Shown piece after piece: positions 26,404-45,524 of a DNA stretch of 62,972 nt. The notes beneath the pieces are model-generated. The model was not told the DNA's origin. It searched no databases and worked only from the letters and a program-made list of their open reading frames with translations. The position numbers and the translations under genes are program-made. The stretch is taken from positions 1 through 62,972 of the forward strand of contig SBBC01000020.1 of NCBI GenBank assembly GCA_005239865.1, written 5' to 3'. Origin of the DNA: Candidatus Microgenomatus auricola (GTDB lineage Bacteria > Patescibacteriota > Patescibacteriia > SBBC01). The number at the start of each line of letters is the position of its first letter. Position 1 is the stretch's first letter.

Positions 26404-26751
26404 TTAGCCGAATAGCTTGGTCCGGACGACCGTCGCTAAGACGACGGCGAGGGTCACCGCAACGATCGAAAGGAGGGCCAGGCCAACCGTGAATTGAACA
26501 GCTTGCTTGAAGCGGGTGTACGAATCAACGTACGTCTTTTCGTGTCGCCTGGCGTACCGTTCAAAAGCTGTTTGCGGCGAGCTAGTTAGGTAGATCGGTA
26601 AGCTCAACAGGTAGATAATCAAGCCGAGCCACCAGTCCGCCACCCACCGTCCAAACGTCATCGGTCCCTGACTTTTGAGGCGGTCGCGTTCGTCGAGCAG
26701 CACCCACCGGACTTGGCGCAAATGTCGGTGAACCGGATGGCGATTGTCCAT
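26404..26751 (-). CDS. small membrane protein, unknown function
   Basis: 115 aa with two TM helices. Confidence 0.5.
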   Translation of the reverse strand: MDNRHPVHRHLRQVRWVLLDERDRLKSQGPMTFGRWVADWWLGLIIYLLSLPIYLTSSPQTAFERYARRHEKTYVDSYTRFKQAVQFTVGLALLSIVAVTLAVVLATVVRTKLFG

Positions 26752-26759
26752 CTGTCTTG

Positions 26760-27809
26760 TTAGCTAGCGACGACGCTGACCGTCATGTTGATGTCGTAGT
26801 CCGAGGCCACCGGCTGCTCCTCGGGAATCGTTTGGGAAATCGCCACGCCGGTTAGGTCCCAGTAGCAATTCGTTCCGGCCGAGGCGCCGGCAGTAATGAG
26901 GGTGACGGAGTTAGTCACGCCTTCGTTGAACGCTGTGGACGAGCCGAGGGTCAGGCCGGTCGTATTGCAGCCGGATTGCGGCGTGATCGTGCCGCCGGAC
27001 GGATTGACCGTCATCTGCCCGCCGACTAAATCCGTGTCTCCGCCATCACCGGCATTTGCGGTCGGGTCGTTGAAGTCGTAGTCCGTGCCGACGCTATCCC
27101 AGACCGCGGTGGGAGCTGAAGCAGCCACGCTCAAGGTCCAGGTAGCAGTGGCCGTTGTGTTGGTAACGCGGATTTTTTCCGATGACACGCCGAAGGTGCC
27201 AGTGGAGGTCTGAACGGCAAACGACAGGCTCAAGGTGCTCATGACCAGAGAGGGGCTGGCGACCGGGGCGCCGCTGGCATCAACGATATCAACGGTCAAG
27301 GAGCCGGCCGCTCCGGCCGCGGTGCCGCAGATCTTGGTGGTGTACGCCGTGCCGTCGCCGACATGGGCGTTCGTGGTGCCGGACATCGAACCGAGCGTGG
27401 TATCGAAACCAGTGCAGTTCGAGGCCTGATATCCGATCGAGACAGAACCGCCGCTGGGAACTGAAATGCAGGCGCTGTTGGCGTAGTTGCTCTGACTGTT
27501 CTGTTCGACGTGAGCATTCGTCGTGCCGGACAATTTCAGGGCGGTGGCAAACGTGCCGCTGCAGGATGTGCCAAGCCCGGTTACTCCGCTGCAACACACA
27601 ACATTATTAGCATACGCCGGGGTTGATTGACTTGGCAGTTCAGCATGGGCATTTGACGCGCCGGACATCCGCCAGATCACTGTGCCGGTGCAGGCCGCGG
27701 CGGTGGTGATTGAACACGACAACGTGCCAGCCAAAACTGACCGGACGAAAAAAAATGAGCCAAGCATTAACAGGCTGACTAAAAAAGTTTTATTTTCAGA
27801 CATTTTCAT
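26760..27809 (-). CDS. secreted WxL-like surface protein with Cys-rich N-terminal repeats
   Basis: Signal peptide, then three roughly 45-aa repeats carrying SG(A/T)(S/T)NAH. The C-terminal 200 aa are paralogous to 30711..31415 and 32804..33436 (TWTLSVAASAPTAVWDSVGTDYDFND ... YWDLTGVAISQTIPEEQ ... YDINMTVSVVAS). Confidence 0.7.
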   Translation of the reverse strand: MKMSENKTFLVSLLMLGSFFFVRSVLAGTLSCSITTAAACTGTVIWRMSGASNAHAELPSQSTPAYANNVVCCSGVTGLGTSCSGTFATALKLSGTTNAHVEQNSQSNYANSACISVPSGGSVSIGYQASNCTGFDTTLGSMSGTTNAHVGDGTAYTTKICGTAAGAAGSLTVDIVDASGAPVASPSLVMSTLSLSFAVQTSTGTFGVSSEKIRVTNTTATATWTLSVAASAPTAVWDSVGTDYDFNDPTANAGDGGDTDLVGGQMTVNPSGGTITPQSGCNTTGLTLGSSTAFNEGVTNSVTLITAGASAGTNCYWDLTGVAISQTIPEEQPVASDYDINMTVSVVAS

Positions 27810-27833
27810 ACATGACTATGAAAACGTCGACCG

Positions 27834-28724
27834 CTAGTTCAAATTATCTAATTCCGCTTGAACGAGCTGCACCGTCCAAGACGCCGACGTACCGCCGTTC
27901 ACGCTGACACCGATGATGCTATTGGCCACCGACGTATCAAAAGCGCCGGAGGTTACCTGCAACGTCGTGCCGGGTTGATTTTGCAACCCAGTGGTGGATA
28001 ATCTATGCCGGGCTTGAGCAGTCCCTTGCATCACGCCAGACGCTCCGACCGCTCGAAACGTAATCCAGACCTCAAATGTTCCAATGTCAGCGGCTGCGGT
28101 TTGGGCTAAAAACGTAAATGTCAGGCGGGCCGTATCAGCCGTGCTGCCGTTGGTGCCGAAACGAACGGTTATGACCGGGGTAGCTGTGCCAGCCGCAGTT
28201 TTGGAAACATCGAAAATCAGGTGGTATCTTGTGCCGACCTTCAGTCCGCCGGATGGGATCGCGATTGACGATCCGGTCAAATAGGTGTCCGTGGCAAAAC
28301 CAGCTCCTTGGGCCGCAGTGCTTTGATTGAAGACTCTGACATTTTTCCACGTACCGTCGCCGCGCCAAAACGTGGAAGCAGAGGCGCCAGTGCCGCTGCC
28401 TAGATTTGTCACTGGCAGGTTGCCGGTCACGCCGTTGGAAAGATCGACCTGGGCCCAAGCCGGATTATTGCTGGCGCCGGTGTTAGAAAGATAACGCGTG
28501 GCGGTAATGTTTTTGGCCAGCGCGGACAGCGTATCAACGGCCGAGCCGTACAGCAGATCTCCTTGGGCCACGCTGCCGGAGACCGAAGTAAAGTCATGGC
28601 CGGGGTTGGGCGCGGCGGCAAAAATGACCCGGAAAACGGCCAGGACAATGGCTCCAAGCAATATCACTCCAAGCACGATATTGAACAGCTTCAAGGATTT
28701 GGTTTTCGGGATGATGTTTTTCAT
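27834..28724 (-). CDS. membrane-anchored beta-rich protein, unknown function
   Basis: 296 aa with an N-terminal TM helix and the motif GNLPVTNLGSGTGASASTFWRGDGTWKNV. Separated by only 24 nt from the downstream WxL-like gene. Confidence 0.55.
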   Translation of the reverse strand: MKNIIPKTKSLKLFNIVLGVILLGAIVLAVFRVIFAAAPNPGHDFTSVSGSVAQGDLLYGSAVDTLSALAKNITATRYLSNTGASNNPAWAQVDLSNGVTGNLPVTNLGSGTGASASTFWRGDGTWKNVRVFNQSTAAQGAGFATDTYLTGSSIAIPSGGLKVGTRYHLIFDVSKTAAGTATPVITVRFGTNGSTADTARLTFTFLAQTAAADIGTFEVWITFRAVGASGVMQGTAQARHRLSTTGLQNQPGTTLQVTSGAFDTSVANSIIGVSVNGGTSASWTVQLVQAELDNLN

Positions 28725-28818
28725 AAGGTCATGCCTTATAATACTTCAGTCAAAGAAATGGGGCCTTTTATGCTGGGATCATACCATAACTTGGAAAATT
28801 ATCCATCGGCGCGTCGGT

Positions 28819-29178
28819 TTACCAGGAAATTACGGAAACCGTTTCTTGCCACTGTCCGTTCGATTGTCGGTCGAGCGTTCGCGCCACGGTTTGGTTTTGG
28901 TCGGTTCGTTCAAGCGTTCGCAGGTACTGACCGGTCTGCTCCAAGAGATTGTCGCTGGCCTGCAAGGCCGGGCCGGTCAGCTCGTTGAGGCGAAACAATA
29001 ACGTGTACTCGTCGTCGGCCGCCGAAAGATTATTCCAGTCGCCGACGATTTGCAGCGACGCGTCGACAATCATAATTCGGACCGGTATAATCGTCATCGA
29101 GAACGATACTGTGGCGGCCTGGGTGAAGGTGGGGAGGAGACCGATGATTGCGATAACGAAGAGGGTTATAAGACGCAT
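28819..29178 (-). CDS. small secreted protein, unknown function
   Basis: 119 aa with a signal peptide (LITLFVIAIIGLLPTFTQA). A 10-bp hairpin abuts its start codon, so its reality is less certain. Confidence 0.4.
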   Translation of the reverse strand: MRLITLFVIAIIGLLPTFTQAATVSFSMTIIPVRIMIVDASLQIVGDWNNLSAADDEYTLLFRLNELTGPALQASDNLLEQTGQYLRTLERTDQNQTVARTLDRQSNGQWQETVSVISW

Positions 29179-29229
29179 ACACCAACAGGCGAGTAGCTGT
29201 TGGTGTTTGTTTTTGGTTGGGATCGAGCG

Positions 29230-30594
29230 TTATGATTTCTTTCGTGGTGACCGCTGGCGACGGTGTGGTTTCCTGACTGGAGCAGACGGCGGAACTAAGA
29301 TTGCAGTACCGCGCTTGAGTTCATAGGGCGGCCGCAGTTTGTTGACTCTGGCCAGCAGTTTCCAGGAAACGTTCCGAGCTTTGGCCAGCGCCTGAACAGT
29401 GTCGTTGGATCTGACCACGTAGCGTACCCATGTTTTCTTGATTAGCTGACGGCGTTTGAGCGTCAGCCAAGCGAGCAGTCCCAAGCCGAGGAGGATGATC
29501 AGGATGGCGGCGTAGATCGCCCAGGCCAAGGGTGACGGCGGGAGGAAAAAGCCGACTGCCGGTTGGCTGATGACCGCCTGTTTCGTATCTGTTTTACCGA
29601 GCTCAACCGCGGGATTAGCGTCATAAGCAACGGTCAGCCGCGAACGGTACCAGCCGCCCCAGAACGTCGGCGCTAGTTCAAAGTTCCATTCTGAAGTGCT
29701 TTCCCGCAGGATGGCGTACTCGCCGCCGTGTCGGATGAGTTCGCGGCCAAAGAGGTTGGTGGTGACTACGCGAACGTCAGCATCAATCGAGACATTGCCG
29801 TCGTTCCGAACAACCGGGTGGAGAATCTTTCCGCCCTGGGCGCGCGGGAGAACGTCAAGGCGGACGATGGAAAGTTTCCGAGTGACATTGCCCGGGATCG
29901 TGACCGCCACGCGGATGCCGGTTCGCGTGGAGATAGCAATGCCTTGATCCGCGCCGCTCGCATCTTTTTTCTCCTGAATCAGGATGCAGCCGTTGTGCTC
30001 ACCAACACTGGCGGTCGGCGGCACGTTGATGGTAAAAGGCACGAGGACTTTCTTTTCCGGATCAATGGTCACGACCACAGGTTGCAGTGGATCGGTGCCA
30101 CTGTCAATTTCATTTTTGTCCGAGGCGCCGTCGCCATCAGTGTCCGGCTCGCTTGGGTTGGTTTTGCGATTTTGCTCGTCTTGATTGGTCAGGCCATCGC
30201 CGTCTTCGTCCTTGTTTGGAAGTAAGGCGGCGGCTTGGTCTCGATCCTGCCCGGGCCAGCCAAAGGTGATCCACGCGCCAACATCGTCACGCGGTTCTGA
30301 CAGTTGCTCGCAGGCGTATCCACCCTCGGTCGACGGCGTCGAGTCGGCCGCGTAGACCATCAGCGTCTTGGCCGCGGTTCCATTGTTGATGACATCAACA
30401 CCCTCGGGTTGAGTTGTCCCGGGTTCAAGCGTGTGAACGAAGATGTCGCTGGTGCGTGGATTGTCCGCGCGAGGGTATGCCGGTCGGCCGCCAATGCCGC
30501 CGTAGGTGATGGCCTGGGCCGGCAGGGCGAATGGCCAGGTTACTATGGAGACGAGCAGCAGACTGCCAAGCAGAACATTTTTGGGAAAGCGCAT
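29230..30594 (-). CDS. DUF916-like (WxL-partner) surface protein with TSP3-type Ca-binding repeats, C-terminal TM and LysM domain
   Basis: Signal peptide, then YGGIGGRPAYP...LEPGTTQPEGVDVINNGTAAKTLMVYAADSTPSTEGGYA (DUF916-like). Next DEDGDGLTNQDE...DTDGDGASDKNE (thrombospondin type 3-like) and a TM helix (AIYAAILIILLGLGLLAWL). The C-terminus has a LysM-like YVVRSNDTVQALAKARNVSWKLLARVN...GTAILVP. Confidence 0.7.
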   Translation of the reverse strand: MRFPKNVLLGSLLLVSIVTWPFALPAQAITYGGIGGRPAYPRADNPRTSDIFVHTLEPGTTQPEGVDVINNGTAAKTLMVYAADSTPSTEGGYACEQLSEPRDDVGAWITFGWPGQDRDQAAALLPNKDEDGDGLTNQDEQNRKTNPSEPDTDGDGASDKNEIDSGTDPLQPVVVTIDPEKKVLVPFTINVPPTASVGEHNGCILIQEKKDASGADQGIAISTRTGIRVAVTIPGNVTRKLSIVRLDVLPRAQGGKILHPVVRNDGNVSIDADVRVVTTNLFGRELIRHGGEYAILRESTSEWNFELAPTFWGGWYRSRLTVAYDANPAVELGKTDTKQAVISQPAVGFFLPPSPLAWAIYAAILIILLGLGLLAWLTLKRRQLIKKTWVRYVVRSNDTVQALAKARNVSWKLLARVNKLRPPYELKRGTAILVPPSAPVRKPHRRQRSPRKKS

Positions 30595-30710
30595 GGGGAT
30601 AAAAGATGGATGTTTGTTCGTCTTTCAGTATATCGTAGTGGCGCCTACAATGCCAACGATACGAAAAACCCCGAGCTCGGCGCCCGGGGCAGTTGTGTAC
30701 GACAGGCTTT

Positions 30711-31415
30711 TTAGGAGGCGACGATTGACAGCACCATGTTGATGTCGTAGTCGGTGGCGGGCACCTGTTCCTCGGGAATCTTCTGGCTGACTGAGACTCC
30801 GGTCAGCTTCCAGTCGCCGATGTCGTTCGAAGCGGCGGCGCCGGTGAGGACCGTGATGCTGTTCGTGGTGCCCTCGACGTAGGCGGTGGAAGAACCTTTG
30901 GTGACGTTGGTGGTAACGCAGGAGTTGCACTGTCCAACCGCCAGCGTCCCGACTGACGGATCAACGGTCATCTGTCCGCCGAGTGTGTCGACGTCAACAC
31001 CGCTGTCAGCGCAACCGGATGTGCCGTTGTCATTGAAGTCGTAGTCAGTGCCAACGCTATCCCAGACCGCGGTCGTGGCCGAGGCCGCCAGCGAAGCGGT
31101 CCAGCCGTTATCAGCCGCGTCGGGATTGGAAACGTAAATGTTTTGGCTGGCCGTGCCAAAGGTACCGGTAATCGTTTGGCAGGCGAAGCTGAACGTGGCC
31201 GTAGACATCACGACCGACGGGCTGGCGACAGTGACGTAGCTAGCGTCAACAATGTCAATCGCCAGCGTGCCGATGTTAATGGTCTGCTGGAAGTTCGAAG
31301 TTGAGCTGGCGTAGACGTAGGTGCCAACACCACTGGCCAAAACCAAAATCCCCACGGTCGCGATGACCGCCTGGAGATTCATTTTCCACAAGAGTACGTG
31401 TAAGAGCTTGTTCAT
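30711..31415 (-). CDS. secreted WxL-like surface protein
   Basis: Signal/anchor sequence, then GTLAIDIVDAS, GWTASLAASATTAVWDSVGTDYDFND and a C-terminal DWKLTGVSVSQKIPEEQ...YDINMVLSIVAS. Confidence 0.7.
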   Translation of the reverse strand: MNKLLHVLLWKMNLQAVIATVGILVLASGVGTYVYASSTSNFQQTINIGTLAIDIVDASYVTVASPSVVMSTATFSFACQTITGTFGTASQNIYVSNPDAADNGWTASLAASATTAVWDSVGTDYDFNDNGTSGCADSGVDVDTLGGQMTVDPSVGTLAVGQCNSCVTTNVTKGSSTAYVEGTTNSITVLTGAAASNDIGDWKLTGVSVSQKIPEEQVPATDYDINMVLSIVAS

Positions 31416-31469
31416 GGTTTTATTTGGTATTTTTTTGGCCAGCGCCGGTTTTCAGCGTTCCTATAGGCC

Positions 31470-31498
31470 AGTATAGCATAAAAAATAAGCCTTGTCAA
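31470..31498 (-). promoter_or_regulatory. sigma70-like promoter (TTGACA-17-TATACT) for the WxL-like gene 30711..31415
   Basis: On the minus strand, TTGACA sits at 31498-31493, followed by a 17-nt spacer and TATACT at 31475-31470. The -35 box overlaps the stop codon of gene 31495..32760. Confidence 0.55.
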
Positions 31499-32760
31499 TG
31501 ATTTTTACGGCTTGTGGAGCGAGTTCTAGAAGTTTTTTGTTTGGGGATGATAAGGACCTGCCCTGGGGTTAGCCGGTACGGTGGTTTGAGTTGATTGAGC
31601 TTGGCCAGCTGCTGCCAGGAAAGGTGAAAACGATCGGCAATCGCGCTGACATCTTCATGCGCCTTAACCGTGTAGCGTGTTGTTTCTTGGTTGGAATGAG
31701 CCCGTCTTCGCTTGATGAGCATGCCGCCGATACTAATCAGGACGAGTACCAGGATGATCAGTAGTGACCAGTGAACGTTCGTGACGTGGATGATACGGCT
31801 GGTGATTAACTGCGGTTGGCCATCCACGTCGTAGGTTACGGTTGCTTGCAACCGCAGCCGACCGAGGAACGGCTTTTTTAGCGGAAAGTTGATGACGAGC
31901 TCATCGTCGTGCAGCACCTGGCCGGGCCGTTCGATAGTTTGATGCTGTCTGGTCCAGAGGTTCGTGATTGAGATACGACTGAGCTGGTTAAGACTGACGC
32001 TACTGCCATTACTCAGACTAAGCGTAACTGTGTAATACCCTGGTTGGGCAGCTGGGCTAATGTTGAACCCTGAGATCCGTAGTTCTTTTTTGACGGTGCC
32101 TGGCACGGTCTGGTAGATGCGAACGCCAACGCGGGTGGTAATCTGGATACCGGATTCGGTCAGGTCGGCGGTGGGCTGCTTTTTTTGAATCACGATGCCG
32201 CCGGTGTGTTCGCCGACTGACAAACCCGGTGGAGCGGACATGATAAACGGTAGGGAAATTTCTCGGCCACCCTCGATGGTCAGCTCGTGGTTAGCAACAC
32301 CGCGGCACCAGGCAATCAGCTCGAGTTTCTGAGTGGGCGTCAGTCGATTGGCTCGTGATCCATTTCCGTCGAGCGACGATCCGCACCATTCAATGATACT
32401 CGTATTTGAGCCAGCCGCAAAAGTTGGACGGTCGTTGGGGTACAGTCGGACCCACGATCCGACGCCGGTCATGGTTTCGGTCTGCTGCTTCAAGGCAAAA
32501 CCTCCGTCCGAACTGCGGGTGGCGTCGGCGGGATAGATCAGGGCGGTGACCGGTTCAGTTCCGCCGTTGGAAATTATGACTGCGTCTTCTTTGACCGTGC
32601 CAGCGGCCAATTCATAGATGAACCAGTTTTGGCTGTTTGGGATGGCTGGATTCGGATTGGCTGGTCGTCCGCCTAAGCCACCGTACTCCAGGCCGCGGAG
32701 GTTCAACGGCAGTGTCAGCAGGACGGCGGCCGTAGAGATGATTAAAAAAAGTCGTTGCAC
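31495..32760 (-). CDS. DUF916-like (WxL-partner) surface protein with C-terminal TM and LysM domain
   Basis: YGGLGGRPANP...LAAGTVKEDAVIISNGGTEPVTALIYPADATRSSDGGFAL, a TM helix (LLIILVLVLISIGGMLI), and LysM-like YTVKAHEDVSAIADRFHLSWQQLAKLN...GQVLIIP. Paralog of 29230..30594. Confidence 0.7.
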   Translation of the reverse strand: MQRLFLIISTAAVLLTLPLNLRGLEYGGLGGRPANPNPAIPNSQNWFIYELAAGTVKEDAVIISNGGTEPVTALIYPADATRSSDGGFALKQQTETMTGVGSWVRLYPNDRPTFAAGSNTSIIEWCGSSLDGNGSRANRLTPTQKLELIAWCRGVANHELTIEGGREISLPFIMSAPPGLSVGEHTGGIVIQKKQPTADLTESGIQITTRVGVRIYQTVPGTVKKELRISGFNISPAAQPGYYTVTLSLSNGSSVSLNQLSRISITNLWTRQHQTIERPGQVLHDDELVINFPLKKPFLGRLRLQATVTYDVDGQPQLITSRIIHVTNVHWSLLIILVLVLISIGGMLIKRRRAHSNQETTRYTVKAHEDVSAIADRFHLSWQQLAKLNQLKPPYRLTPGQVLIIPKQKTSRTRSTSRKNH

Positions 32761-32803
32761 CTTGTCAGCATACCAACAAAATGAGCGTGCGGACAGAGCT
32801 GAA

Positions 32804-33436
32804 TCAGCTGGCGGTCAGGACGAGGGTTAGGGTGTAGGTGCCCGGCGGTTGAGTAGCGGGAATGGTGTTGGATAAGGACACGCCGGTCAGATCCCAGCGA
32901 CCCGGTTGGCTGGCCGAGGTACTGCCCTGGAGAACGGTCAGGCTGTCGCGGGTGCCTTGGAGAAACGTGTTCGAGCTGCCCAAGGTCACACCGGTACTGG
33001 TGTAACTGTTCGTCGGCGTAATGGTTCCGGTGCCAGGGTTGACCGTCATGATGCCATTGGCGGCGGTGGCATTATTAAAATCAAAGGTGTCGCCGCCACT
33101 GGTCCACAGGGCGGAAGGTGCCGAACCGGCGACCGACAGGGTCCAGGCGGCGGCGGGTGGTTGGCGGCCGTTACTCAGCCGGATTTTTTGCGACGAGGCG
33201 CCGAGCGTGCCCGAACCGGACTGTTGATCGAACGAAAATGTCACGGCTCCGAAACCGACGGTTGGACTGGCCACGCTGTTGCCGGAGCTGTCAACGATGT
33301 CGACGCCGAGTGTCCCGGCGTTGATGGTCTGGGATAGTTGTGTGGTGTTGGCAGCATACGCAATATCCGTGCTAGGCCCGGTAGCCACCACGGTACTCAA
33401 GAGCACAACCAACAGATTGCGACTAAGTCTGTTCAT
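32804..33436 (-). CDS. secreted WxL-like surface protein
   Basis: Signal peptide, then GTLGVDIVDSS, AAWTLSVAGSAPSALWTSGGDTFDFNN and a C-terminal RWDLTGVSLSNTIPATQ...YTLTLVLTAS. Confidence 0.7.
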   Translation of the reverse strand: MNRLSRNLLVVLLSTVVATGPSTDIAYAANTTQLSQTINAGTLGVDIVDSSGNSVASPTVGFGAVTFSFDQQSGSGTLGASSQKIRLSNGRQPPAAAWTLSVAGSAPSALWTSGGDTFDFNNATAANGIMTVNPGTGTITPTNSYTSTGVTLGSSNTFLQGTRDSLTVLQGSTSASQPGRWDLTGVSLSNTIPATQPPGTYTLTLVLTAS

Positions 33437-33564: not shown

Positions 33565-34614
33565 ATGACGCTCCAGGAGTTGATGACGAAAGCCGTCGAA
33601 GCGCGCGCCTCCGACCTCCACCTGATCGTAGGCGAGCCGCCGACCCTGCGCATTGACGGCGAACTCGAAGCGCTCAAAGGGTACCCAAAGTTGACGCCGA
33701 ACGATACCAAGGCGTTGATTTACAGTATTCTCGCGCCAGAACAAATCAAGCGCTTTGAGAATGAACAGGAATTCGACACCGCCTACGACCTTCCCGGGGT
33801 CAGCCGGTTTCGCATCAATCTTCACTACGAACTCCGGAACGTCGGCGTTTCGATCCGCGTCGTTCCACACAAGATTCCGACTCCCAAGGAACTTGGTTTC
33901 GATGAGACCATTTACGAAATCACGCACATCAACGCCGGTCTCGTCCTCGTCACCGGCCCCTCGGGATCGGGGAAGTCGACGACGATCGCCTCAGTGATCG
34001 ACATCATCAACACCGAGCGCCGCGCCCACATCATCACCATTGAGGATCCGGTGGAGTTCGTCTTCACGCCGAAACAGAGCATCATTGAGCAACGAGAGGT
34101 CGACATCGACACCAAGTCGTTCTCCGCCGCCCTCAAACGGGTACTCCGGCAGGACCCGAATGTCATCTTCGTTGGAGAGATGCGTGACCTCGAGACGTTC
34201 CAGGCGACCCTGACGGCAGCGGAGACCGGCCACCTCGTTTTTTCGACGCTCCACACGCCGAACGCCGCCCAAACCGTTGATCGGATCATCGACATGTTCC
34301 CGCCGCACCAGCAGGACGAAGCGCGTCTGGAGTTGGCCGGCGTCCTGCGCGCGATCATTGCGCAACAACTCGTTCCCCGTGAGGGCGGCGGCCGGGTGGC
34401 CGTCCGGGAGCTCCTCATTAACTCTCCAGCCATTGCCAATCTTATTCGTGAGAATCAAATTGCCCAGATCCCATCAGCCATGCAGATGGGCGGGCAGGAA
34501 GGGATGCGAACGATGGATATGTCGCTGCGGCAGCTTTATCTGGCCGGTGAGATCAGCGAAACGACGGCACGGAATCGAATGCTTGATCCGGAAAAACTCA
34601 CCACGTATTTCTAA
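33565..34614 (+). CDS. pilT: type IV pilus retraction ATPase PilT
   Basis: Walker A GPSGSGKSTT, IFVGEMRDLET, and the TGHLVFSTLHT His box, in 349 aa. Confidence 0.9.
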   Translation: MTLQELMTKAVEARASDLHLIVGEPPTLRIDGELEALKGYPKLTPNDTKALIYSILAPEQIKRFENEQEFDTAYDLPGVSRFRINLHYELRNVGVSIRVVPHKIPTPKELGFDETIYEITHINAGLVLVTGPSGSGKSTTIASVIDIINTERRAHIITIEDPVEFVFTPKQSIIEQREVDIDTKSFSAALKRVLRQDPNVIFVGEMRDLETFQATLTAAETGHLVFSTLHTPNAAQTVDRIIDMFPPHQQDEARLELAGVLRAIIAQQLVPREGGGRVAVRELLINSPAIANLIRENQIAQIPSAMQMGGQEGMRTMDMSLRQLYLAGEISETTARNRMLDPEKLTTYF

Positions 34615-38955: not shown

Positions 38956-39972
38956 TTACAGTTTGTTTGGTTCCGTCCGCTGCCAATTGTACCAGGAGGC
39001 GGCGACGATTCCGGCGATGATGATGAGGTAGGGAAGCGCCGGGTAGACCGGGTAGCAGCGGTACTGGAAGTAAAACCATAGCGCCAGAATCGTGAGCACG
39101 AGCGGTCCAATCCACCACCAGGCGATCCTCGATTTCCTGATCGGGTAGACGCTCAAAACGAGGAGCACGACGTAGCCGATGTAGAACCAGACCCAGCTGG
39201 CGCGTTGCAACGGCGTGCAGGGCTTGGTCGTGTCCGTTGTTTCGGGTGGTGTCGCGGCCGCTGCGCTTTCGTTTGTGAGCGTCGGGGCGTTGGTATTCGT
39301 TGTTGGCGTTAAGCTGGTCGAGGCATTGGTGTTCCCGGCCGAGCTGGGAGCGTTGACGTTGGAGACAAAGGGAGCTTGTTCGACGAGCACCTCGACCGAT
39401 GACGATTCGTCAGCGCTTCGGGCGATGACCTTGCCTCGGCCGGCGGCGCTGGCGGTGAAGGTGGCGCTTGTTTTTCCAGTTGACGCGATCGTACCGATTT
39501 TCCCCTCGACACTCCACCGGACGGTGAAGTCGGTGACGACATTGTCAAAGGCATCAAACGCCTCGGCGCTGAACGTCAGTGTTTCGCCGTTGTACAGTCG
39601 TTCTGGATCGGAGTTCGGGTTGACCGTTAGGTCAGTCACCGGTCCTGGCCTGACCGTAACCGTGGCACTCGACGTCAAATTATTGTAGTTCGCCGTGATG
39701 ACCCAGTTGCCAGTTTTTCCGGCGGTCAAGACGTTCGCCTTGGTCGTCCCTCGAGGATCGGTCGTTGTGAAGACGCTATTGGTAGTGAGATCGGCTGGTT
39801 CACCGGCGGCGTCAACGCCGGAGACCGTGAAGATCCGCGTTGAACCAGCGGCGGCGGTTACGCTCGAGGGACTGATGGCGATACTCACAATCGGACCGAC
39901 CGCGAAGGCAGGCGGTGTGCCAACGACGAGCATCGCCAGAAGAGCAATCCCTCCAAGGATGCGCGTAGACAT
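38956..39972 (-). CDS. secreted Ig-like (Big_2-type) repeat protein with C-terminal polytopic membrane region
   Basis: Signal peptide, two roughly 90-aa Ig-like repeats (ITANYNNLTSSATVTV), a Thr/Asn-rich linker, then about 4 Trp/Tyr-rich TM helices. Confidence 0.6.
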   Translation of the reverse strand: MSTRILGGIALLAMLVVGTPPAFAVGPIVSIAISPSSVTAAAGSTRIFTVSGVDAAGEPADLTTNSVFTTTDPRGTTKANVLTAGKTGNWVITANYNNLTSSATVTVRPGPVTDLTVNPNSDPERLYNGETLTFSAEAFDAFDNVVTDFTVRWSVEGKIGTIASTGKTSATFTASAAGRGKVIARSADESSSVEVLVEQAPFVSNVNAPSSAGNTNASTSLTPTTNTNAPTLTNESAAAATPPETTDTTKPCTPLQRASWVWFYIGYVVLLVLSVYPIRKSRIAWWWIGPLVLTILALWFYFQYRCYPVYPALPYLIIIAGIVAASWYNWQRTEPNKL

Positions 39973-39983
39973 GGGTGACCTCG

Positions 39984-40667
39984 TTAGGTGGTAAGTGGCT
40001 CGGCGAAGAGGACTAAGCGTTGTTTCGTGGAGAAGATGGGTGTGCAGGTGAAGATCGTAAGTTGCGGTGCTTTGGTATTGTCGAGGATTTCGACCGCGTC
40101 CGGATTCACCACTTTTCGCTTAGTAACTCGGTAATCGTACTCTTTTCCTTGCCAGTAGACAATGATGATCTCGCCTGGCTGCATCCGGTCAAGGAGATAG
40201 AGGGTTTTTGGTCCGGATAGGTATTGGAAGCGGTGACCGGTGAGGACGGTATTGCCGCCCCGATCCGGCGTGGAGGTGTCGGGGAGGTGCCAAATTCCGC
40301 GGTAGAGCGCGCGTTCGTCTTTGCCTTCAACGATTGCCACGTCGACGCCGATCTTAGGAATGACTAGGCGGTTGCCCTTTGGCGGTTCCGGTTTCTTGAC
40401 ATCAGGGATGTCCGGCAGAACGCTCGTGCCGGCGAGCTTTGTCTGGTACGGGTAGACCGGTGCTGGTTTGAAGGTCTCGTAGATGATCCACGGCGAGAAG
40501 GGGATGGCAAGGATGACGAGACCGACGACAATCGCCGCGATTGAGGCAGGTTTCCGGAACCTTGACCACCCTGACCCGGCCCTCGTTCTTCGTGCACCAG
40601 GCCGCCGCTTCGAAGGCGAAGCGGCGGTCGTGCGCTTATTTGTGATTCGCTTCCGGCTCCGTCCCAT
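39984..40667 (-). CDS. sortase (class E-like, predicted LAxTG specificity)
   Basis: Basic N-terminus plus TM anchor, catalytic His in VLTGHRF, and Cys in QLTIFTCTP (TLxTC motif). All neighbouring substrates end in LA(A/T)TG. Confidence 0.85.
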   Translation of the reverse strand: MGRSRKRITNKRTTAASPSKRRPGARRTRAGSGWSRFRKPASIAAIVVGLVILAIPFSPWIIYETFKPAPVYPYQTKLAGTSVLPDIPDVKKPEPPKGNRLVIPKIGVDVAIVEGKDERALYRGIWHLPDTSTPDRGGNTVLTGHRFQYLSGPKTLYLLDRMQPGEIIIVYWQGKEYDYRVTKRKVVNPDAVEILDNTKAPQLTIFTCTPIFSTKQRLVLFAEPLTT

Positions 40668-40696
40668 CCGTTCTTCAGGATGTCCGAGAGCGGAGC

Positions 40697-41347
40697 TTAG
40701 GAGGCGCGGCGGCGAAGTCCGACGAGGCCGGCGCCGGCCAGACCGAGACCTGCCAGGGCAATCAGGAGATCGAGCGCGCCCGGACCAGTCGCAGCTAGTT
40801 CGTCTTCGGCACCGAGGACTGTTCCCGAACTTTCTTGGCCACGTTCTTCAGTTGTCACACCTTGCACAACCGGAATGTTGACGTTGACGGTCGAACGCAC
40901 CGTGACTGGATCGTGATTGCTGGCGGCTACCGTGGCGACGTTGACGTACTCACCATTGGCCGTCACGTTGACGACTTTCGCAGAGTACGACGTGCTCGTC
41001 GTTTGTCCGGGGTCGAGTTGACCCAAAAAGGTGAAGTCGTAGGTATTGGCGTTATTGGTCGTGACGGTGAATCCGATCGGCAGGATGTCGCTGACCTTTA
41101 AGCCAGTGGCCGCGGCCGTACCGGTGTTCTTGATCGTGACCGTATAGGTAACGACGTCGCCGGGCTTGGCCGAGGTGCGGTCAGCGGTCTTCGTCACCTC
41201 GAGGGCCGGCTTCGTCAGCTGAACCGGTTCCTGTGGGCTCGGACCGACGACCTGCGCTCCGGCCAGACGGGCCAGGGCCAGGGCGGCGACCGTCACGCCG
41301 GCTGTCAGCGAGACGCGGAACGGGCGCTTGTGGAGAAGGGTGTTCAT
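40697..41347 (-). CDS. DUF11-repeat surface protein with LAATG sorting signal
   Basis: Signal peptide and a DUF11 repeat (KTADRTSAKPGDVVTYTVTIKNTGTAAATGLKVSD). The C-terminus is LAATG, then a hydrophobic stretch, then RRRAS. Confidence 0.8.
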   Translation of the reverse strand: MNTLLHKRPFRVSLTAGVTVAALALARLAGAQVVGPSPQEPVQLTKPALEVTKTADRTSAKPGDVVTYTVTIKNTGTAAATGLKVSDILPIGFTVTTNNANTYDFTFLGQLDPGQTTSTSYSAKVVNVTANGEYVNVATVAASNHDPVTVRSTVNVNIPVVQGVTTEERGQESSGTVLGAEDELAATGPGALDLLIALAGLGLAGAGLVGLRRRAS

Positions 41348-41413
41348 AGCTTCCTCCCTAGATTATGAGCTTGTTTTGTGAGTAAGGTGGTCATGGGGAC
41401 GCTTGTCTCGATA

Positions 41414-44400
41414 CTACCAAATCTGCCCTGGGTTGCCAACTGCGGATTTGTCCGCTGCCAACGGCCGGCGACGCAGACCGAGCAAGCCGAGCGCCACCAA
41501 CGCGAACCCCAGCATGGCGATGACGAAGTCGATGGTTCCCGGACCGGTGGTCGCCAGACCGCGCACCTTTGGCACGCGGACAGTCAGTTTTGCCTGCGTT
41601 TCCTTCGCCGGCAGTTCATCGGCGGCGACGGTCGCAACGTTGACGTAGTCGCCGTTCTTGGCGTCGGACTCGACGCGGACATCGACGTCAATGACGCGGC
41701 TGCGACCAGGTTCCAGAGTTCCGAGTTCCCAGGTCATCGTCCGGCCCTTGGCATGGACGAAGGAGAGGTCCGGCGGGAGGGTATCAGTGATCACCACGTT
41801 GGTCGCATCGGCGTCGCCCGTGTTGCGTACGGTGATCGTGTAGGTGACGATGTCGCCGGGCTTGGCCGTGGTTGGGCTGACGGTTTTGGCAATCGTCAGG
41901 TCGGGGAGCGCTTCGATGCCGAGGACGACCGGGACGCGGACTTCGACCGGTGCCACCGCACTGACTTCGTTGGTGTTATCGCCCTTGGCTTTGGCCAGGT
42001 TGTCGAAGGTGCCGGCGGCTTGCGTACCGCTGATGTTGACGAGGTAGGTGATGGTGGCGGACTGCCCGGGCGTCAGGTTGCCGACGACGAACGACTTGGT
42101 CGTTGCGCCATCAACCGCGAAGGTGAAGCCGGCTGGCAGCTTGTCCGTCAGGACGACGTTCTTCGCCGTGTCAGTGGCCGTTGCCTTGTTGGTGACAGTG
42201 ACAGAGTAGGTGATGGCCTTGCCTGGATTCGTGAAGGTCTGGACGTCACTGACTTTCGCGACTGTCAGATCGGGCGCTGACGTTACGGTGACGCTGGCCG
42301 AGGCGCTCAAGGGCGGGTCAGTTTCGGCCGAGTCGATGGTCGCGGTGTTCGTGACGATGGTGTTGTTGGTGATTGGCCTGACAGCCCGCGTCACAAAGTG
42401 GACTTCACCGGAGGCGCCCGGCGCTTGAGTTCCGAGGTTCCAGAAGAGACTGTTTGTGGTTGGATTGTAGATGCCGCCGTCTGCGGCCGAGTGGAAGATC
42501 ATATTGGTCGGGATGGGGTCGACAATGGTGAGAGCGGTCGCGTTAGTATTTCCGCTGACCGTCCACTTGATTGTCCAGGTCGTGGTTGTGTCAGCTGGGA
42601 CTGTGGCGGGATTGGCGCTCTTCTGGAGACCGAGAACCGGTAATGCGGCGACGGTTGTCGTGACGGTGTCCGAGACCGGATCGGTTTGGTCAGTATCGAA
42701 GGTGCCAGTGTTCGTGATCATCGTTCCGTTCGGGAGTGGTGAATTTGTTTTCACCGTTACGGTCACGTTCCCGGACTCACCAGGATTCCGCGACCCGAGG
42801 TTCCAGGAGATAGTGTTGGTTGCCGAGTTGATCGTGCAAGCACCAGCGGTCGTACCACAGCCGGCCGAAACGAACGCCGTGTTCGCCGGTACGGTATCCG
42901 TGACTATCGCGTTCGTGACCGGCGCTGGGCCAACCGTCCAGGCGAGGGTATAGGCGAGGTTCTCGCCAGCGACCACAGTCGCCGGACCGGTTTTGTCAAC
43001 GGTAATGACCGGACCGATGTCGTCGTTAGTGATAGTGCAGGTCTTCGTCGCACCAGCTTCGACCGCAACGACGTTGGTCGGTTGTCCATTACACACGATG
43101 CTCGTCTGGATATAGCCCGATGGCAGACCAGTCTCGCTCACCTCATAGATTCCGGCGGGGAGGGTCGAGGTGGTACCACTTTCCGAGCCAGCGAATGGCG
43201 TCACCACGTCGCTGCCGTTCTGCTGGACGTGCATGGTGAAGTCGGAGGCCGTGGCTGTACCGAGGTTGTCGTTGATAACGTGCTTGATAATTTTGAGATC
43301 ACCGCTCGTGACCGAGTTCACGAAGCGGCAAGAGATAGTTTCATCGGTGCCTATGTTGAGGTTAGAGACCGTGCGGTTCACGAGGTCAACCGTCCCGACG
43401 CTCTGGTCGCTCTTGAGGCATTCGATCGAGGTCAGTTTGGTGTTGGGCTTCTGGTTGAGCTCGATCAAACTGTAGGTGCCGTTGAGCACCTCGAACTCCA
43501 AACTGCCGCTGTTGGTCGTGGTTTGGGCGGTCGGCGGGTCCGCTGACGGCGAGTGGTGGATGTCGAACTCCCAGCCGGCCAACCGGTGATCAGGCGTTGA
43601 GCCGTCGAGGTCAGCTGTGCCATCGTTGTTGGTGTCGAACTGTTTCTGAACGATAATCTTGCCGCCGCACAGTGCTTTGGCTAGTTGTGACATCGAAGAG
43701 CTTAGTTGGTCGAAGTCCGTCTTGATAACGTCAGTTGTGACAGCGACGGCGTTCGGTGGAGCGATGTTCAGTCCGGAAATGGCGGCCAGTTTCGGATTGT
43801 TCCAGGTTGGATCTACTGGATTGAAGTCCGGGTCAGTTTCATCCTGGCCAATGCCGATAACGACGATGCGTGTACCGGCGTTCTTCACCAGGTTGGCCTG
43901 TTCGGTCGCTTGTCCTAGTGCATTACCGTCGGTCCAACTGAAGTTCGTACCGCCAGAAGTGTTGTAAGTGTTTGGGCTACCGTCGGTGGCGACGACCAGC
44001 AGGTTCGGTTTGGCTGGTCGGGGATCAAAGGTGCCGAAGCTTTCGGATAAGGCATCTTCCCAGTTGGTCGTGCCACTCCCCAAGCTGTTGAGTTCACTGT
44101 TGATTGCGGTCTTGGCCGCTGCGATATTCGACGTGAACGGTTGGATCACCGAGGCGGTCGTGGAGAACTCAACGACGCTGATGTCTGTCGGGGTTCCGGT
44201 GAAAGCATCGACGAAGCCGACGAGCGCATCCCGCATCGGCGTGACCTCATTGCTCATGCTGTCCATGCTGCCGGAGCGGTCAATGACTAAGCTGATATCA
44301 AGACCGCACGATTGACCGAGCGGAGGGTTGGGAACCGGTTGCGGATTGCAGTTTGGGCCGTCGCCCACAAGCTCCTGTAGCTTCGAGTTGCCGGCTTTGA

Positions 44401-45289
44401 TGGTGGCCGTGGCTGTCCCGGTCGACGGGGATGATTCGTTGAAAGTCAGGGTGAGCGTGGTCGGCAGGCTGGTGTCTTGCAGGCTGTCAATCTTGACCGA
44501 GCCGTCAGCATTAAAGACCAGCGTGCCGTCAGTGCTGCTGGAAGCGGCCTGATTGATGTCGCTTAAACTCCAACAACCAGCGATGTCAACGTGACTGATT
44601 TCTTTGCCGCTGGCTGGCTTGGAACCGTCGATGGTCCAGACGTAGGTCTGACTGGCAGCTGGCGGAGTTGGGGAGTTAATCTCGAAGGTGTAACCGCCGT
44701 AGTGCACTTTGACGGCCACATGGTCGACACCGACCGTGCCTGAGCTGAAGTCATTCTGGATACGAACAGCAAAGTTGGCATTCGAGATTTCTGACGCGTC
44801 CCAAGCCGTTCGACCCCACAGATCGGACGAACCGCCGAGCGTCACAGTGCTGTACGAGCCGCCGAAGCCGTCGGCGTTCTTGCTTGACCCCCAGGAGCTG
44901 CCGTTGTTGTCGGTCAGGTAGACGTTAAGGTTTTTGGTCCCGCTGCCGCTGGCTCGCTTCGCACGAACCTTGACTTCAATCCCGACAACCGATTGGCCAG
45001 GCGGGACTGAAATGTTGAAACCACCGTAACGGTGATTACTCGTATCGTTGAACACGGCATCCGCATCATTTTGGGTGTTGGCATTAGCCGGGTTGGTGAC
45101 CGTTGGATTGAGGTTGGCGTTGGTCGATGGGTTGAGGTAGCCGGTATCAGATAATGCTTGAGCTGGCAGTGGGCGGATTAAGGATCCGACCAAGCTAACG
45201 TTCAAAATCGTGGTCACCCCGACGATGATGTTGAGGGTTTTCCACACTTTCTGCTTGAAGGACTTCCGCTGGATAAAATTGATGGTCAT
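41414..45289 (-). CDS. giant surface adhesin: vWA domain, prealbumin/Cna-B-like domain, multiple DUF11 repeats, LATTG sorting signal
   Basis: 1291 aa from MTINFIQRK. vWA MIDAS-like DISLVIDRSGSM, SpaA/Cna-B-like region (GWEFDI...TYSLIE), at least six DUF11 repeats, and a C-terminal LATTG plus TM plus RRRP. Confidence 0.85.
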   Translation of the reverse strand: MTINFIQRKSFKQKVWKTLNIIVGVTTILNVSLVGSLIRPLPAQALSDTGYLNPSTNANLNPTVTNPANANTQNDADAVFNDTSNHRYGGFNISVPPGQSVVGIEVKVRAKRASGSGTKNLNVYLTDNNGSSWGSSKNADGFGGSYSTVTLGGSSDLWGRTAWDASEISNANFAVRIQNDFSSGTVGVDHVAVKVHYGGYTFEINSPTPPAASQTYVWTIDGSKPASGKEISHVDIAGCWSLSDINQAASSSTDGTLVFNADGSVKIDSLQDTSLPTTLTLTFNESSPSTGTATATIKAGNSKLQELVGDGPNCNPQPVPNPPLGQSCGLDISLVIDRSGSMDSMSNEVTPMRDALVGFVDAFTGTPTDISVVEFSTTASVIQPFTSNIAAAKTAINSELNSLGSGTTNWEDALSESFGTFDPRPAKPNLLVVATDGSPNTYNTSGGTNFSWTDGNALGQATEQANLVKNAGTRIVVIGIGQDETDPDFNPVDPTWNNPKLAAISGLNIAPPNAVAVTTDVIKTDFDQLSSSMSQLAKALCGGKIIVQKQFDTNNDGTADLDGSTPDHRLAGWEFDIHHSPSADPPTAQTTTNSGSLEFEVLNGTYSLIELNQKPNTKLTSIECLKSDQSVGTVDLVNRTVSNLNIGTDETISCRFVNSVTSGDLKIIKHVINDNLGTATASDFTMHVQQNGSDVVTPFAGSESGTTSTLPAGIYEVSETGLPSGYIQTSIVCNGQPTNVVAVEAGATKTCTITNDDIGPVITVDKTGPATVVAGENLAYTLAWTVGPAPVTNAIVTDTVPANTAFVSAGCGTTAGACTINSATNTISWNLGSRNPGESGNVTVTVKTNSPLPNGTMITNTGTFDTDQTDPVSDTVTTTVAALPVLGLQKSANPATVPADTTTTWTIKWTVSGNTNATALTIVDPIPTNMIFHSAADGGIYNPTTNSLFWNLGTQAPGASGEVHFVTRAVRPITNNTIVTNTATIDSAETDPPLSASASVTVTSAPDLTVAKVSDVQTFTNPGKAITYSVTVTNKATATDTAKNVVLTDKLPAGFTFAVDGATTKSFVVGNLTPGQSATITYLVNISGTQAAGTFDNLAKAKGDNTNEVSAVAPVEVRVPVVLGIEALPDLTIAKTVSPTTAKPGDIVTYTITVRNTGDADATNVVITDTLPPDLSFVHAKGRTMTWELGTLEPGRSRVIDVDVRVESDAKNGDYVNVATVAADELPAKETQAKLTVRVPKVRGLATTGPGTIDFVIAMLGFALVALGLLGLRRRPLAADKSAVGNPGQIW

Positions 45290-45524
45290 ACTATTTTCCT
45301 CACATTCCTTAAGGTAAAAGAAGAGCAACGAGCGTCGCACCCTATCAATGACGGGGTGTGCGATGTGAGCGCCGTACCGGATGCCCTCTGAATTGCCATG
45401 ATTAGCGATAATTTGTTGAACAGGTGAGGATAGAATAGGTGCCTAGTTCTTGTCAAGTCCTGCTCGAAGGAGGGAGGATTTTCGTCTTTCCCCCCTCCCT
45501 CTACCTGGGTTCGAGCGAATAGGT

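Follow-up and report, generated by a model that had tools for sequence, protein, structure and literature searches.

A Patescibacteria gene cluster encoding WxLIP homologues and a family of proteins with a probable, strongly diverged WxL-type module

Seven co-oriented genes on the minus strand (positions 26760-33436) of a 62,972-nucleotide contig of Candidatus Microgenomatus auricola (SBBC01000020.1, referred to below as the window) probably constitute the form that the WxL/WxLIP (Csc) surface-display cluster of Bacilli takes in Patescibacteria of the Kerfeldbacteria type. Two of the encoded proteins, B1 and B2, are distant homologues of WxLIP, the membrane protein of those clusters, and three others, A1, A2 and A3, end in a common module that is probably related to the WxL domain. 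Clusters of the WxL/WxLIP type are considered characteristic of Bacilli, in which they matter in adhesion and virulence. Patescibacteria account for much of bacterial diversity, and most of them are episymbionts that have not been cultivated; their surface decoration and their attachment to hosts are largely obscure, and most of their surface proteins are annotated as hypothetical.

The cluster came to our attention through an original prediction, made from the nucleotide sequence alone, of seven co-oriented genes that all encode signal-peptide or membrane-anchored proteins. We recovered all seven open reading frames (ORFs) where that prediction had placed them, and hydropathy and inspection revealed a hydrophobic, signal-peptide- or signal-anchor-like N-terminus in each of the seven products. 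The region has a G+C content of about 56-58%. The closest relatives of every cluster gene were found in metagenome-assembled genomes of Candidatus Kerfeldbacteria and other Patescibacteria, which places the host among the ultra-small Patescibacteria, in agreement with the original prediction. The order of transcription is A3, B2, A2, B1, Y, X and A1, followed by a gene for a 115-residue membrane protein. The features are listed below in that order; the promoter-like and terminator-like sites near A2 are pattern matches from a consensus scan only.

32804-33436, minus strand: A3 (210 residues), a small, domain-only protein with a signal peptide and the WxL-like C-terminal module
31495-32760, minus strand: B2 (421 residues), WxLIP homologue with a signal peptide, PGBD-like domain, HBD-like domain, transmembrane (TM) helix and LysM
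31470-31498, minus strand: promoter-like site 5′ of A2 (TTGACA-17-TATACT, TG-extended, 11/12 matches)
30711-31415, minus strand: A2 (234 residues), small WxL-like protein
30668-30690, minus strand: terminator-like hairpin just 3′ of A2 (9 bp stem with 7 GC pairs, T-run)
29230-30594, minus strand: B1 (454 residues), second WxLIP homologue, with thrombospondin-type-3 (TSP3) repeats in the PGBD-like domain
28819-29178, minus strand: Y (119 residues), small protein predicted to be secreted, a conserved component of the cluster
27834-28724, minus strand: X (296 residues), protein with an N-terminal membrane anchor, a variable component of the cluster
26760-27809, minus strand: A1 (349 residues), large type, with a signal peptide, three repeats and the C-terminal WxL-like module
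26404-26751, minus strand: predicted membrane protein of 115 residues, directly 3′ of A1 and outside 26760-33436

WxLIPs, or CscA proteins, occur in Lactobacillales, Listeria and Bacillus and are defined by DUF916 (PGBD) and DUF3324 (HBD) domains together with a TM helix (Hassan et al. 2023, PMC10599100). The structure of a WxLIP from Enterococcus faecium has been solved (PDB 9i1y), as has that of WxLIP bound to a long WxL protein (9i25). B1 and B2 are related to each other over their full length (29% identity, E=5e-50), and in both the layout of beta-sandwich domains and membrane segment includes one TM helix in addition to the N-terminal hydrophobic segment. In B2 a helical insert of about 45 residues (~108-152) precedes the TM helix (~331-352) and LysM (363-406). 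In B1 the TM helix (~351-372) is also followed by LysM (392-435), and Asp-rich TSP3 repeats of the calcium-binding type are inserted in the PGBD-like domain (TSP3_bac, PF18884, E=5.5e-9), as had been predicted for one of the two paralogues. LysM itself was recognized by PF01476 in both proteins (B1, E=3.6e-7 and 30.5 bits; B2, E=1.5e-12 and 47.7 bits; cut-off 20.9). Matches to the DUF916 model PF06030, now named WxLIP_PGBD, fell below its gathering cut-off of 27.3 bits: residues 36-95 of B2 corresponded to profile positions 8-67 (E=0.019, 15.4 bits) and residues 173-207 of B1 to profile positions 86-120 (E=0.25, 11.8 bits). As these fragments are complementary, they point to an insertion within the domain. 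No match to PF11797 (DUF3324) was obtained in B1 or B2 at E<=1.

Comparison at the level of family profiles gave a clear result. As a reference we assembled eight authentic WxLIP genes, together with the WxL genes beside them, all verified with Pfam, from plasmids of Enterococcus, Listeria, Lactiplantibacillus, Bacillus, Lactococcus and Melissococcus. When 84 B-family proteins were aligned to the eight WxLIPs with hhalign, the match covered 259 columns over PGBD and HBD (Prob 98.6, E=1.2e-15) and extended to position 272 of the 340 positions of the template, in which the control HBD spans 158-293. Reciprocal HMMER searches agreed with this alignment, in that the B-family hidden Markov model (HMM) detected Firmicutes WxLIPs with E values down to 4e-16 and the WxLIP HMM detected Patescibacteria B proteins with E values down to 2e-10; the B-family HMM matched B1 at E=3e-137. 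Searched against the PDB, the B-family profile found EfmWxLIP1 at E=2.6e-9 (chain residues 3-263). The AlphaFold2 (AF2) model of B2 was of high quality (predicted local distance difference test (pLDDT) 91, predicted TM-score (pTM) 0.73), with a helix at 331-356 and the beta-alpha-alpha-beta element of LysM. Its top three Foldseek matches in the PDB were 9i1y_A, 9i1y_B and 9i25_C (E=4-6e-13, the next match being at 7e-8), aligned over 309-320 columns with a target-normalised TM-score of 0.60-0.67.

Membership in PGBD/DUF916 was therefore seen at the level of the family profile, single sequences scoring below the Pfam gathering threshold, and membership in HBD/DUF3324, directly after PGBD, was seen in structure and profile and not with the Pfam model. 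Hydropathy, charge and the AF2 model also agreed on a signal peptide and a single C-terminal TM helix with a positive cytoplasmic side. The N-terminal NQIDKxxxYFDLK motif of Firmicutes WxLIPs was absent: the B family has P..S.SWFIY.L.PG at this place and keeps only the aromatic-hydrophobic strand pattern. A search of a large database returned about 100 B homologues, nearly all from Patescibacteria and mostly annotated as 'LysM peptidoglycan-binding domain-containing protein'. Many of them carried a precomputed PF06030 assignment, and the tail of the search contained Streptomyces proteins named 'DUF916 / WxL protein peptidoglycan domain'. From the hhalign alignment, the reciprocal HMMER matches and the PDB matches of the B2 model we conclude that B1 and B2 are genuine distant homologues of WxLIP (DUF916, DUF3324 and TM helix), which substantiates the prediction of two DUF916-like paralogues that end in a TM helix followed by LysM.

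The A proteins are paralogues in a module of about 190 residues, close to the 200 first estimated. A2 and A3 share 44% identity (BLASTP E=7e-45), A1 matches A2 at 54% identity over its last ~190 residues, and the A-module HMM matched A3 at E=3e-61 and A1 at E=8e-86. The motifs quoted for the module (GTLxxDIVD, WT(L/A)S(V/L)A, DYDFN and W(D/K)LTGV...IP..Q...Y) were present in the paralogues. Two literal W-x-L sequences had been counted in every protein; this was correct for A1 and A3 only, because the first site of A2 reads W-T-A.

We identified 546 homologues of A2. Among the 120 matches listed, which were spread over many classes of Patescibacteria, identity was 62-88%, all were called hypothetical and none had a Pfam domain; B2 homologues, in contrast, fell to about 35% identity. 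An exhaustive HMMER search with the A profile against 1.84 billion representatives retrieved 710 clusters (at 50% identity) with E<=1e-3. WxL domains are always C-terminal and occur in small and large forms (PMC9772566), and the same was found for the A module: it occurred once per protein, and in 147 of the 150 best representatives at most 5 residues separated its end from the C-terminus. These proteins comprised 45 domain-only proteins of <=300 residues and 105 of >300 residues, 33 of which exceeded 1,000 residues (maximum 2,069). The passengers of the large proteins were mostly unannotated, with occasional lectin-like, beta-propeller, PATR or immunoglobulin (Ig) domains. In A1 the passenger (residues ~40-165) consists of three Cys-containing repeats of about 47 residues, each with SG(A/T)(S/T)NAH, which matched no family. 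A full-length A1 orthologue with the same repeat architecture is encoded in a second Kerfeldbacteria locus, L019 (343 residues, 3877-4908, E=1e-136), and larger equivalents occur in two more, L001 (669 residues) and L020 (1,114 residues), both of which also have an A3 orthologue at the equivalent position.

Whether this module could be a WxL domain was judged against 13 small WxL proteins verified with Pfam, which scored E=1e-27 to 1e-57 with the WxL model PF13731. The hhalign alignment of the A family with these 13 domains was collinear from end to end over about 170 columns. Its global score was 18.6, compared with 4.5+-2.6 (maximum 14.1) for block-shuffled nulls and 3.2 for the reversed profile, and its local score was 25.0, compared with 16.6+-2.5 (maximum 21.9) and 13.5, respectively; none of 200 column- or block-shuffled nulls equalled either score. 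Similarly, an HMM built solely from Firmicutes WxL domains matched 58-85 of 158 A modules at P<0.01, as opposed to 6-13 reversed or shuffled modules, and these matches fell on motif 1 and the VP...Y strand. Sixteen aligned columns were at least 70% conserved in both families, and 10 of them held the same residue, including the motif 1 Trp (W1), the Leu at W1+2, the Phe of FG, the Pro of VP and the Tyr of motif 2. Among 120 re-optimised shuffles the average was 1.2 such columns and the highest count 8, so that none reached 10. The correlation of column conservation between the two families was not significant (Spearman rho=0.08); of the two column tests, only the one on residue identity where both families are conserved is informative.

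The published hallmarks of WxL motif 1 are a hydrophobic residue at W1-10, Asp at W1-8, Arg at W1-6, Gly at W1-1 and a hydrophobic residue at W1+4 (PMC9772566). In the A family the motif takes the form V-x-N-x7-W-x-L. Trp was found in 154 of 158 modules and Leu at +2 in 118 (otherwise V/I/M/A), with V/I/L at W1-10 and I/L/V/M at W1+4; W1-8 was an invariant Asn instead of the canonical Asp, and W1-6 was mostly Thr instead of Arg. The published spacing was thus matched throughout the family at W1-10, W1-8 and W1+4, and in A2 by Gly at W1-1 as well. The context of the first W-x-L conformed to the pattern, with substitutions at the hydrogen-bond pair, such that the context of W105 of A2 (V-S-N-P-D-A-A-D-N-G-W-T-A-S-L) aligned on the canonical V-x-D-x-R-G-x-x-x-G-W-x-L-x-V. 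Farther downstream, the GDW and IP of the A family aligned with the conserved 'G.GtW' and VP of WxL domains, and Y-D-I-N-M-V-L-S-I aligned with the canonical motif 2, Y-t-a-t-l-t-W-x-L. The second literal W-x-L had originally been taken as a WxL motif. The W(D/K)L sequence does exist, but it is not the canonical motif 2 (Y.a.l.W.L), as its Trp (W202 of A2) aligned with 'G.GtW'; the Tyr of the canonical motif was kept in 156 of 158 modules.

We also surveyed the gene neighbourhood at nine Patescibacteria loci, including the window, and at one Streptomyces locus (L006). Gene orders at six of them were as follows.

L001, Kerfeldbacteria: A3-B2-A2-B1-Y-large A (669 residues)-115 residues
L020, Kerfeldbacteria: A-B-A2-B1 (TSP3)-98 residues-346 residues-large A (1,114 residues)
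L019, Kerfeldbacteria: A-A-B-X-A1-like
L003, Dojkabacteria: large A (585 residues, Gly_rich_2)-B-Y-like-A-A
L005, Saccharimonadales: A-B-large A (412 residues)
L017, Patescibacteria: A-B-166 residues, then a large A (818 residues) on the opposite strand

At least two A genes and at least one B gene were adjacent in seven of the nine Patescibacteria loci, namely these six and the window, which has two B and three A genes. The adjacency of A and B spans Kerfeldbacteria, Dojkabacteria and Saccharimonadales, and B1 orthologues with TSP3 repeats were found in L001 and L020. Because synteny is conserved, over several classes of Patescibacteria, we rejected chance adjacency of the cluster genes. A WxL cluster has been defined as at least one WxLIP and at least two WxL genes within four genes (PMC10599100); provided that A counts as WxL-like, the same seven loci satisfy this rule.

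The B proteins thus resemble WxLIPs in having a signal peptide, two Ig-like beta-sandwich domains in the same order, a TM helix and a positive segment, and their genes likewise adjoin those of small and large proteins with a common C-terminal module. They differ in that YGGxGGRPAxP...SWFIYxLxPG is found instead of NQIDKxxxYFDLK, in that the first domain contains an insert of about 45 residues, helical in B2 and made up of TSP3 repeats in B1, and in that a tail of 60-85 residues with LysM takes the place of the short cytoplasmic tail, to which some relatives add a second TM helix and LytR_C. The A module resembles PF13731 domains in its size, its position at the extreme C-terminus, its small (CscB/Swp) and large (CscC/Lwp) forms, its location beside a WxLIP gene and its motif 1 spacing and FG, VP and Tyr positions. 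In contrast to those domains it has no Pfam match, Asn and mostly Thr replace Asp(W1-8) and Arg(W1-6), Leu, Ile, Val or Met replaces the second Trp, the A proteins lack the proline-rich linker that small WxL proteins have at the N-terminus, and the family is far more conserved (62-88% identity for the A2 type).

As a whole, the cluster shares with the csc clusters of Lactiplantibacillus plantarum (Siezen et al. 2006, PMC1534035) and the WxL loci of E. faecium and E. faecalis at least one DUF916-type membrane protein and at least two common-module proteins, secreted and encoded in the same orientation. Unlike them it has Y, X, the 115-residue membrane protein and two WxLIP paralogues, and no CscD-type LPXTG protein. 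The host phylum also differs, since more than 91% of known WxL sequences come from Firmicutes (PMC9772566). In the literature library that we searched, we found no paper tying WxL, WxLIP or DUF916 to Patescibacteria, the candidate phyla radiation (CPR) or Saccharibacteria; a 2025 'signal-strapping' paper has DUF916 only as a gene neighbour. The proposal of a distant version of csc therefore stands as regards the WxLIP homologues and the conserved neighbourhood, fails as regards the LPXTG component, and as regards WxL homology is probable only.

In the mechanism that we propose, B1 and B2 would be exported by Sec and sit in the membrane, their ectodomains facing outward. The modules of A1, A2 and A3 may then dock non-covalently on the PGBD-like domain of B1 or B2, by analogy with the complex in 9i25, where the PGBD binds WxL by insertion of a beta-hairpin, and docking would hold the small A proteins and the A1 passenger outside the monoderm envelope. 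Variable passengers, such as the Cys repeats of A1 and the lectin-like, Ig, PATR and other domains of its relatives, would be displayed for adhesion; since members of the phylum live as episymbionts, host cells or substrates are plausible targets. The LysM that follows the TM helix would face the cytoplasm instead of binding the wall; a link to peptidoglycan precursors or to some partner in the cytoplasm is speculative.

Several results weigh against this proposal, most of them concerning the A module. A1, A2 and A3 had no match to PF13731 or to any NCBIfam model even at E<=1, and the hhalign comparison with WxL domains, despite exceeding its controls, reached a probability of only 6-7% (P~0.001-0.005). 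The position of the motif 2 Trp was occupied by L/I/V/M in 156 of 158 modules and never by Trp. The best 150 matches of the A-profile HMMER search were all members of the family, and no canonical WxL protein was reached. In the WxL fold the strands of the two motifs lie next to each other in antiparallel orientation. The AF2 model of A2, based on a 13-sequence alignment, was all-beta and unreliable (pLDDT 49.5), and a Foldseek search with this low-confidence model gave no match at E<=1e-3 and did not place 9i25_A among the top 50. WxLIP-like genes occurred with no A module or WxL domain in two of the Patescibacteria loci, L007 and L018, and in the Streptomyces locus, so that WxLIP-like proteins can have other partners. 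No LPXTG/LAxTG motif with a TM tail was found on inspection of the cluster proteins. Finally, physical interaction of A with B, the surface location of the A proteins and a role in adhesion are all inferred.

Most of these results would also fit if the A module were an unrelated, Patescibacteria-specific C-terminal domain that was independently recruited as cargo or partner of true WxLIP homologues, the motif likeness reflecting the composition and constraints of beta-rich proteins. We consider this explanation unlikely. It leaves unexplained a collinear alignment over ~170 columns that beat every shuffled and reversed control, the ten identical residues at jointly conserved columns, and the C-terminal-only rule and small/large dichotomy that A and WxL proteins have in common. 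Moreover, a genuine large WxL protein of Listeria scored only E=0.018 with PF13731, indicating that this model is insensitive to divergent members. Because the A2 model is unreliable, the fold search with it is uninformative, and we set aside its matches (a luteovirus readthrough domain at E~3e-3; pilins and adhesins at E>0.1) as meaningless. The PDB likewise offered little to compare with: the A-family profile found nothing at E<=10 among PDB sequences, a genuine small WxL protein used as query retrieved no solved structure of that class, and 9i25_A, the long WxL chain, came up only when the query was a large-WxL profile. The hhalign score was no higher after the A profile had been rebuilt from 158 diverse modules. 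We are thus fairly confident in describing the A module as a probable, unproven and strongly diverged WxL-type domain that is not demonstrably a member of PF13731. The WxL likeness originally claimed for it is in this sense probable; none of the Pfam and profile searches assigned either this module or the N-terminal block of the B proteins to an unrelated family.

A different role for the small A proteins, compatible with either origin of the module, is that they, and A2 above all, are abundant, self-assembling S-layer- or fibre-like subunits tethered by B rather than docking modules of adhesins. The exceptional conservation of A2 together with its own near-consensus promoter-like site and strong terminator-like hairpin, which are pattern matches only, suggests an abundant, structurally constrained protein and leaves room for such a role. 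S-layers have been reported or predicted in Patescibacteria, although the A family was not identified there (bioRxiv 10.1101/2024.05.28.596244). In 105 of the 150 representatives, however, the module is a C-terminal appendage of very different large proteins, which fits anchoring or docking better than a lattice subunit. We therefore regard a lattice or fibre as rather unlikely.

LysM was present in most of about 80 full-length Patescibacteria homologues of B, such that the predicted fusion of DUF916 with LysM is real and is not peculiar to the genome of the window. The domain is elsewhere an overwhelmingly extracytoplasmic module that binds peptidoglycan or chitin, and the original prediction implied that it would serve as an extra wall anchor. 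Our data did not favour this. Among the 84 B-family proteins the mean net charge of the 12 residues after the TM helix was +3.7, compared with +0.3 before it, and Firmicutes WxLIPs, which have a cytoplasmic tail of 7-20 residues, showed a matching charge bias. In relatives of 650-700 residues (P0010, P0013, P0030 and P0041) there are two TM helices with one or two LysM domains and a Lys-rich linker between them, and an acidic linker and LytR_C after the second helix; LytR_C is normally extracytoplasmic. On the basis of the positive-inside bias and of the location of LysM between the helices in these two-TM relatives, the LysM of B1 and B2 is predicted to be cytoplasmic, which is unusual for LysM and would mean that it is not an additional wall anchor. 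Kbp of Escherichia coli provides a precedent for a cytoplasmic LysM.

For LysM to face outward and anchor the WxLIP-like proteins to peptidoglycan, the positive-inside rule would have to fail here. The general location of LysM domains would favour this orientation, as would the PDB matches of the B profile and the extracytoplasmic LysM proteins that B proteins matched in part in NCBIfam. However, a single TM helix separates the Sec-exported ectodomain from LysM, and this helix carries the charge difference described above; the two-TM relatives, with LysM and LytR_C on opposite sides of the second helix, argue in the same direction. An outward LysM is accordingly quite improbable in our judgement. 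A more ambitious extension of the cytoplasmic topology is that the WxLIP-like proteins are transmembrane couplers, which outside would dock a WxL-derived, exceptionally conserved subunit of the A2 type that builds a major envelope layer or fibre of Patescibacteria, as well as variable adhesins, and whose LysM inside would sense or recruit peptidoglycan-precursor sugars or another partner, thus linking assembly of the surface layer to wall synthesis. We offer this as a long shot.

From this locus, two very large families so far called hypothetical receive a role that can be tested. One is the A family, which numbers about 700 clusters and reaches lengths of ~2,000 residues; the other consists of the proteins now labelled 'LysM peptidoglycan-binding domain-containing protein', which are in fact WxLIP homologues. 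What is new is a WxLIP homologue with a novel tail and a divergent WxL-like partner family that lacks the second Trp, in a phylum previously without a known system of this kind; the predicted cytoplasmic LysM is a separate oddity. If docking occurs, the C-terminal A module would be an address tag with which surface-displayed adhesins could be found in CPR genomes, and the WxL system would be much older or more mobile than thought. If the proteins were couplers, they would represent a new use of LysM and a core envelope module throughout the CPR.

Two of the loci with no A module had other features. On the short Patescibacteria contig of L007 (160-3716) there are three tandem WxLIP-like genes, one full-length and two PGBD-only, and a gene for a 194-residue secreted protein ('DTRGNGAATVVISATATGF ... 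TLTYSIV') that resembles a WxL domain without both Trp residues and whose HMM scores were not significant. We considered this protein ('DTRG...TLTYSIV') as an intermediate between A and WxL and rejected it, as it scored P~0.01-0.05 against both HMMs, like unrelated sequences. The L006 locus (Streptomyces sp., GCA_040650575.1, 6306-13076) encodes a DUF916-type protein of 607 residues, two Big_3_5 proteins and a sortase. With no WxL domain or A module nearby in L006, DUF916-type anchors outside Firmicutes and Patescibacteria appear to have other partners.

The remaining cluster proteins, Y and X, like A1, A2 and A3, had no meaningful match in Pfam, NCBIfam or PHROGs scans. Y is homologous to the product of a 120-residue gene in L001 (E=2e-22) and to the N-terminus of that of a 378-residue gene in L003 (E=6e-10), both at the equivalent cluster position, and is kept in Kerfeldbacteria and Dojkabacteria clusters. 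Clusters of the Saccharimonadia type have instead proteins of 164-166 residues with a signal peptide and a C-terminal TM anchor (L005, 4909-5403; L017, 8156-8656). By eye, the mature N-termini resembled the strand with which the A module begins, a likeness that the statistics did not support; the idea that the N-terminus of Y is a copy of this strand was rejected, since P~0.01-0.05 against both HMMs is what unrelated sequences give. X starts with a TM anchor, contains the motifs 'NPGH' and 'LPVxNxGxGxG', the latter resembling tail fibres, and belongs to a family of more than 2,300 homologues, all hypothetical, that is very large in Patescibacteria; some relatives contain collagen (PF01391) or phage-tail-repeat (PF12789) domains. 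X is missing from L001, and in L019 it adjoins B and an A1-like gene. The 115-residue membrane protein, whose ORF had no family match in the same three scans, has a homologue at the equivalent position in L001 (15981-16328) and may be an eighth member of the operon.

The original prediction had also drawn attention to a sortase/LAxTG locus 5.5 kb from the cluster and to the small LPXTG protein (CscD-like) of csc systems. Inspection of the cluster proteins yielded no such component. The sortase locus exists as a separate locus, in which the sortase has LAxTG substrates of its own.

39984-40667, minus strand: sortase (PF04203), together with its own LAxTG substrates (locus 39984-45340)

The larger region at 38956-45340 on the minus strand is a separate locus that is syntenic in L001. 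Besides the sortase it encodes a 216-residue DUF11/CLIPPER protein ending in LAATG, a TM segment and RRRAS, a 1,308-residue protein with VWA and four DUF11 domains ending in LATTG and a TM segment, and a 338-residue Big_1-like membrane protein. Upstream of A3, and divergent from the cluster, a gene at 33565-34614 on the plus strand encodes a PilT/T2SSE-type ATPase and is likewise syntenic in L001.

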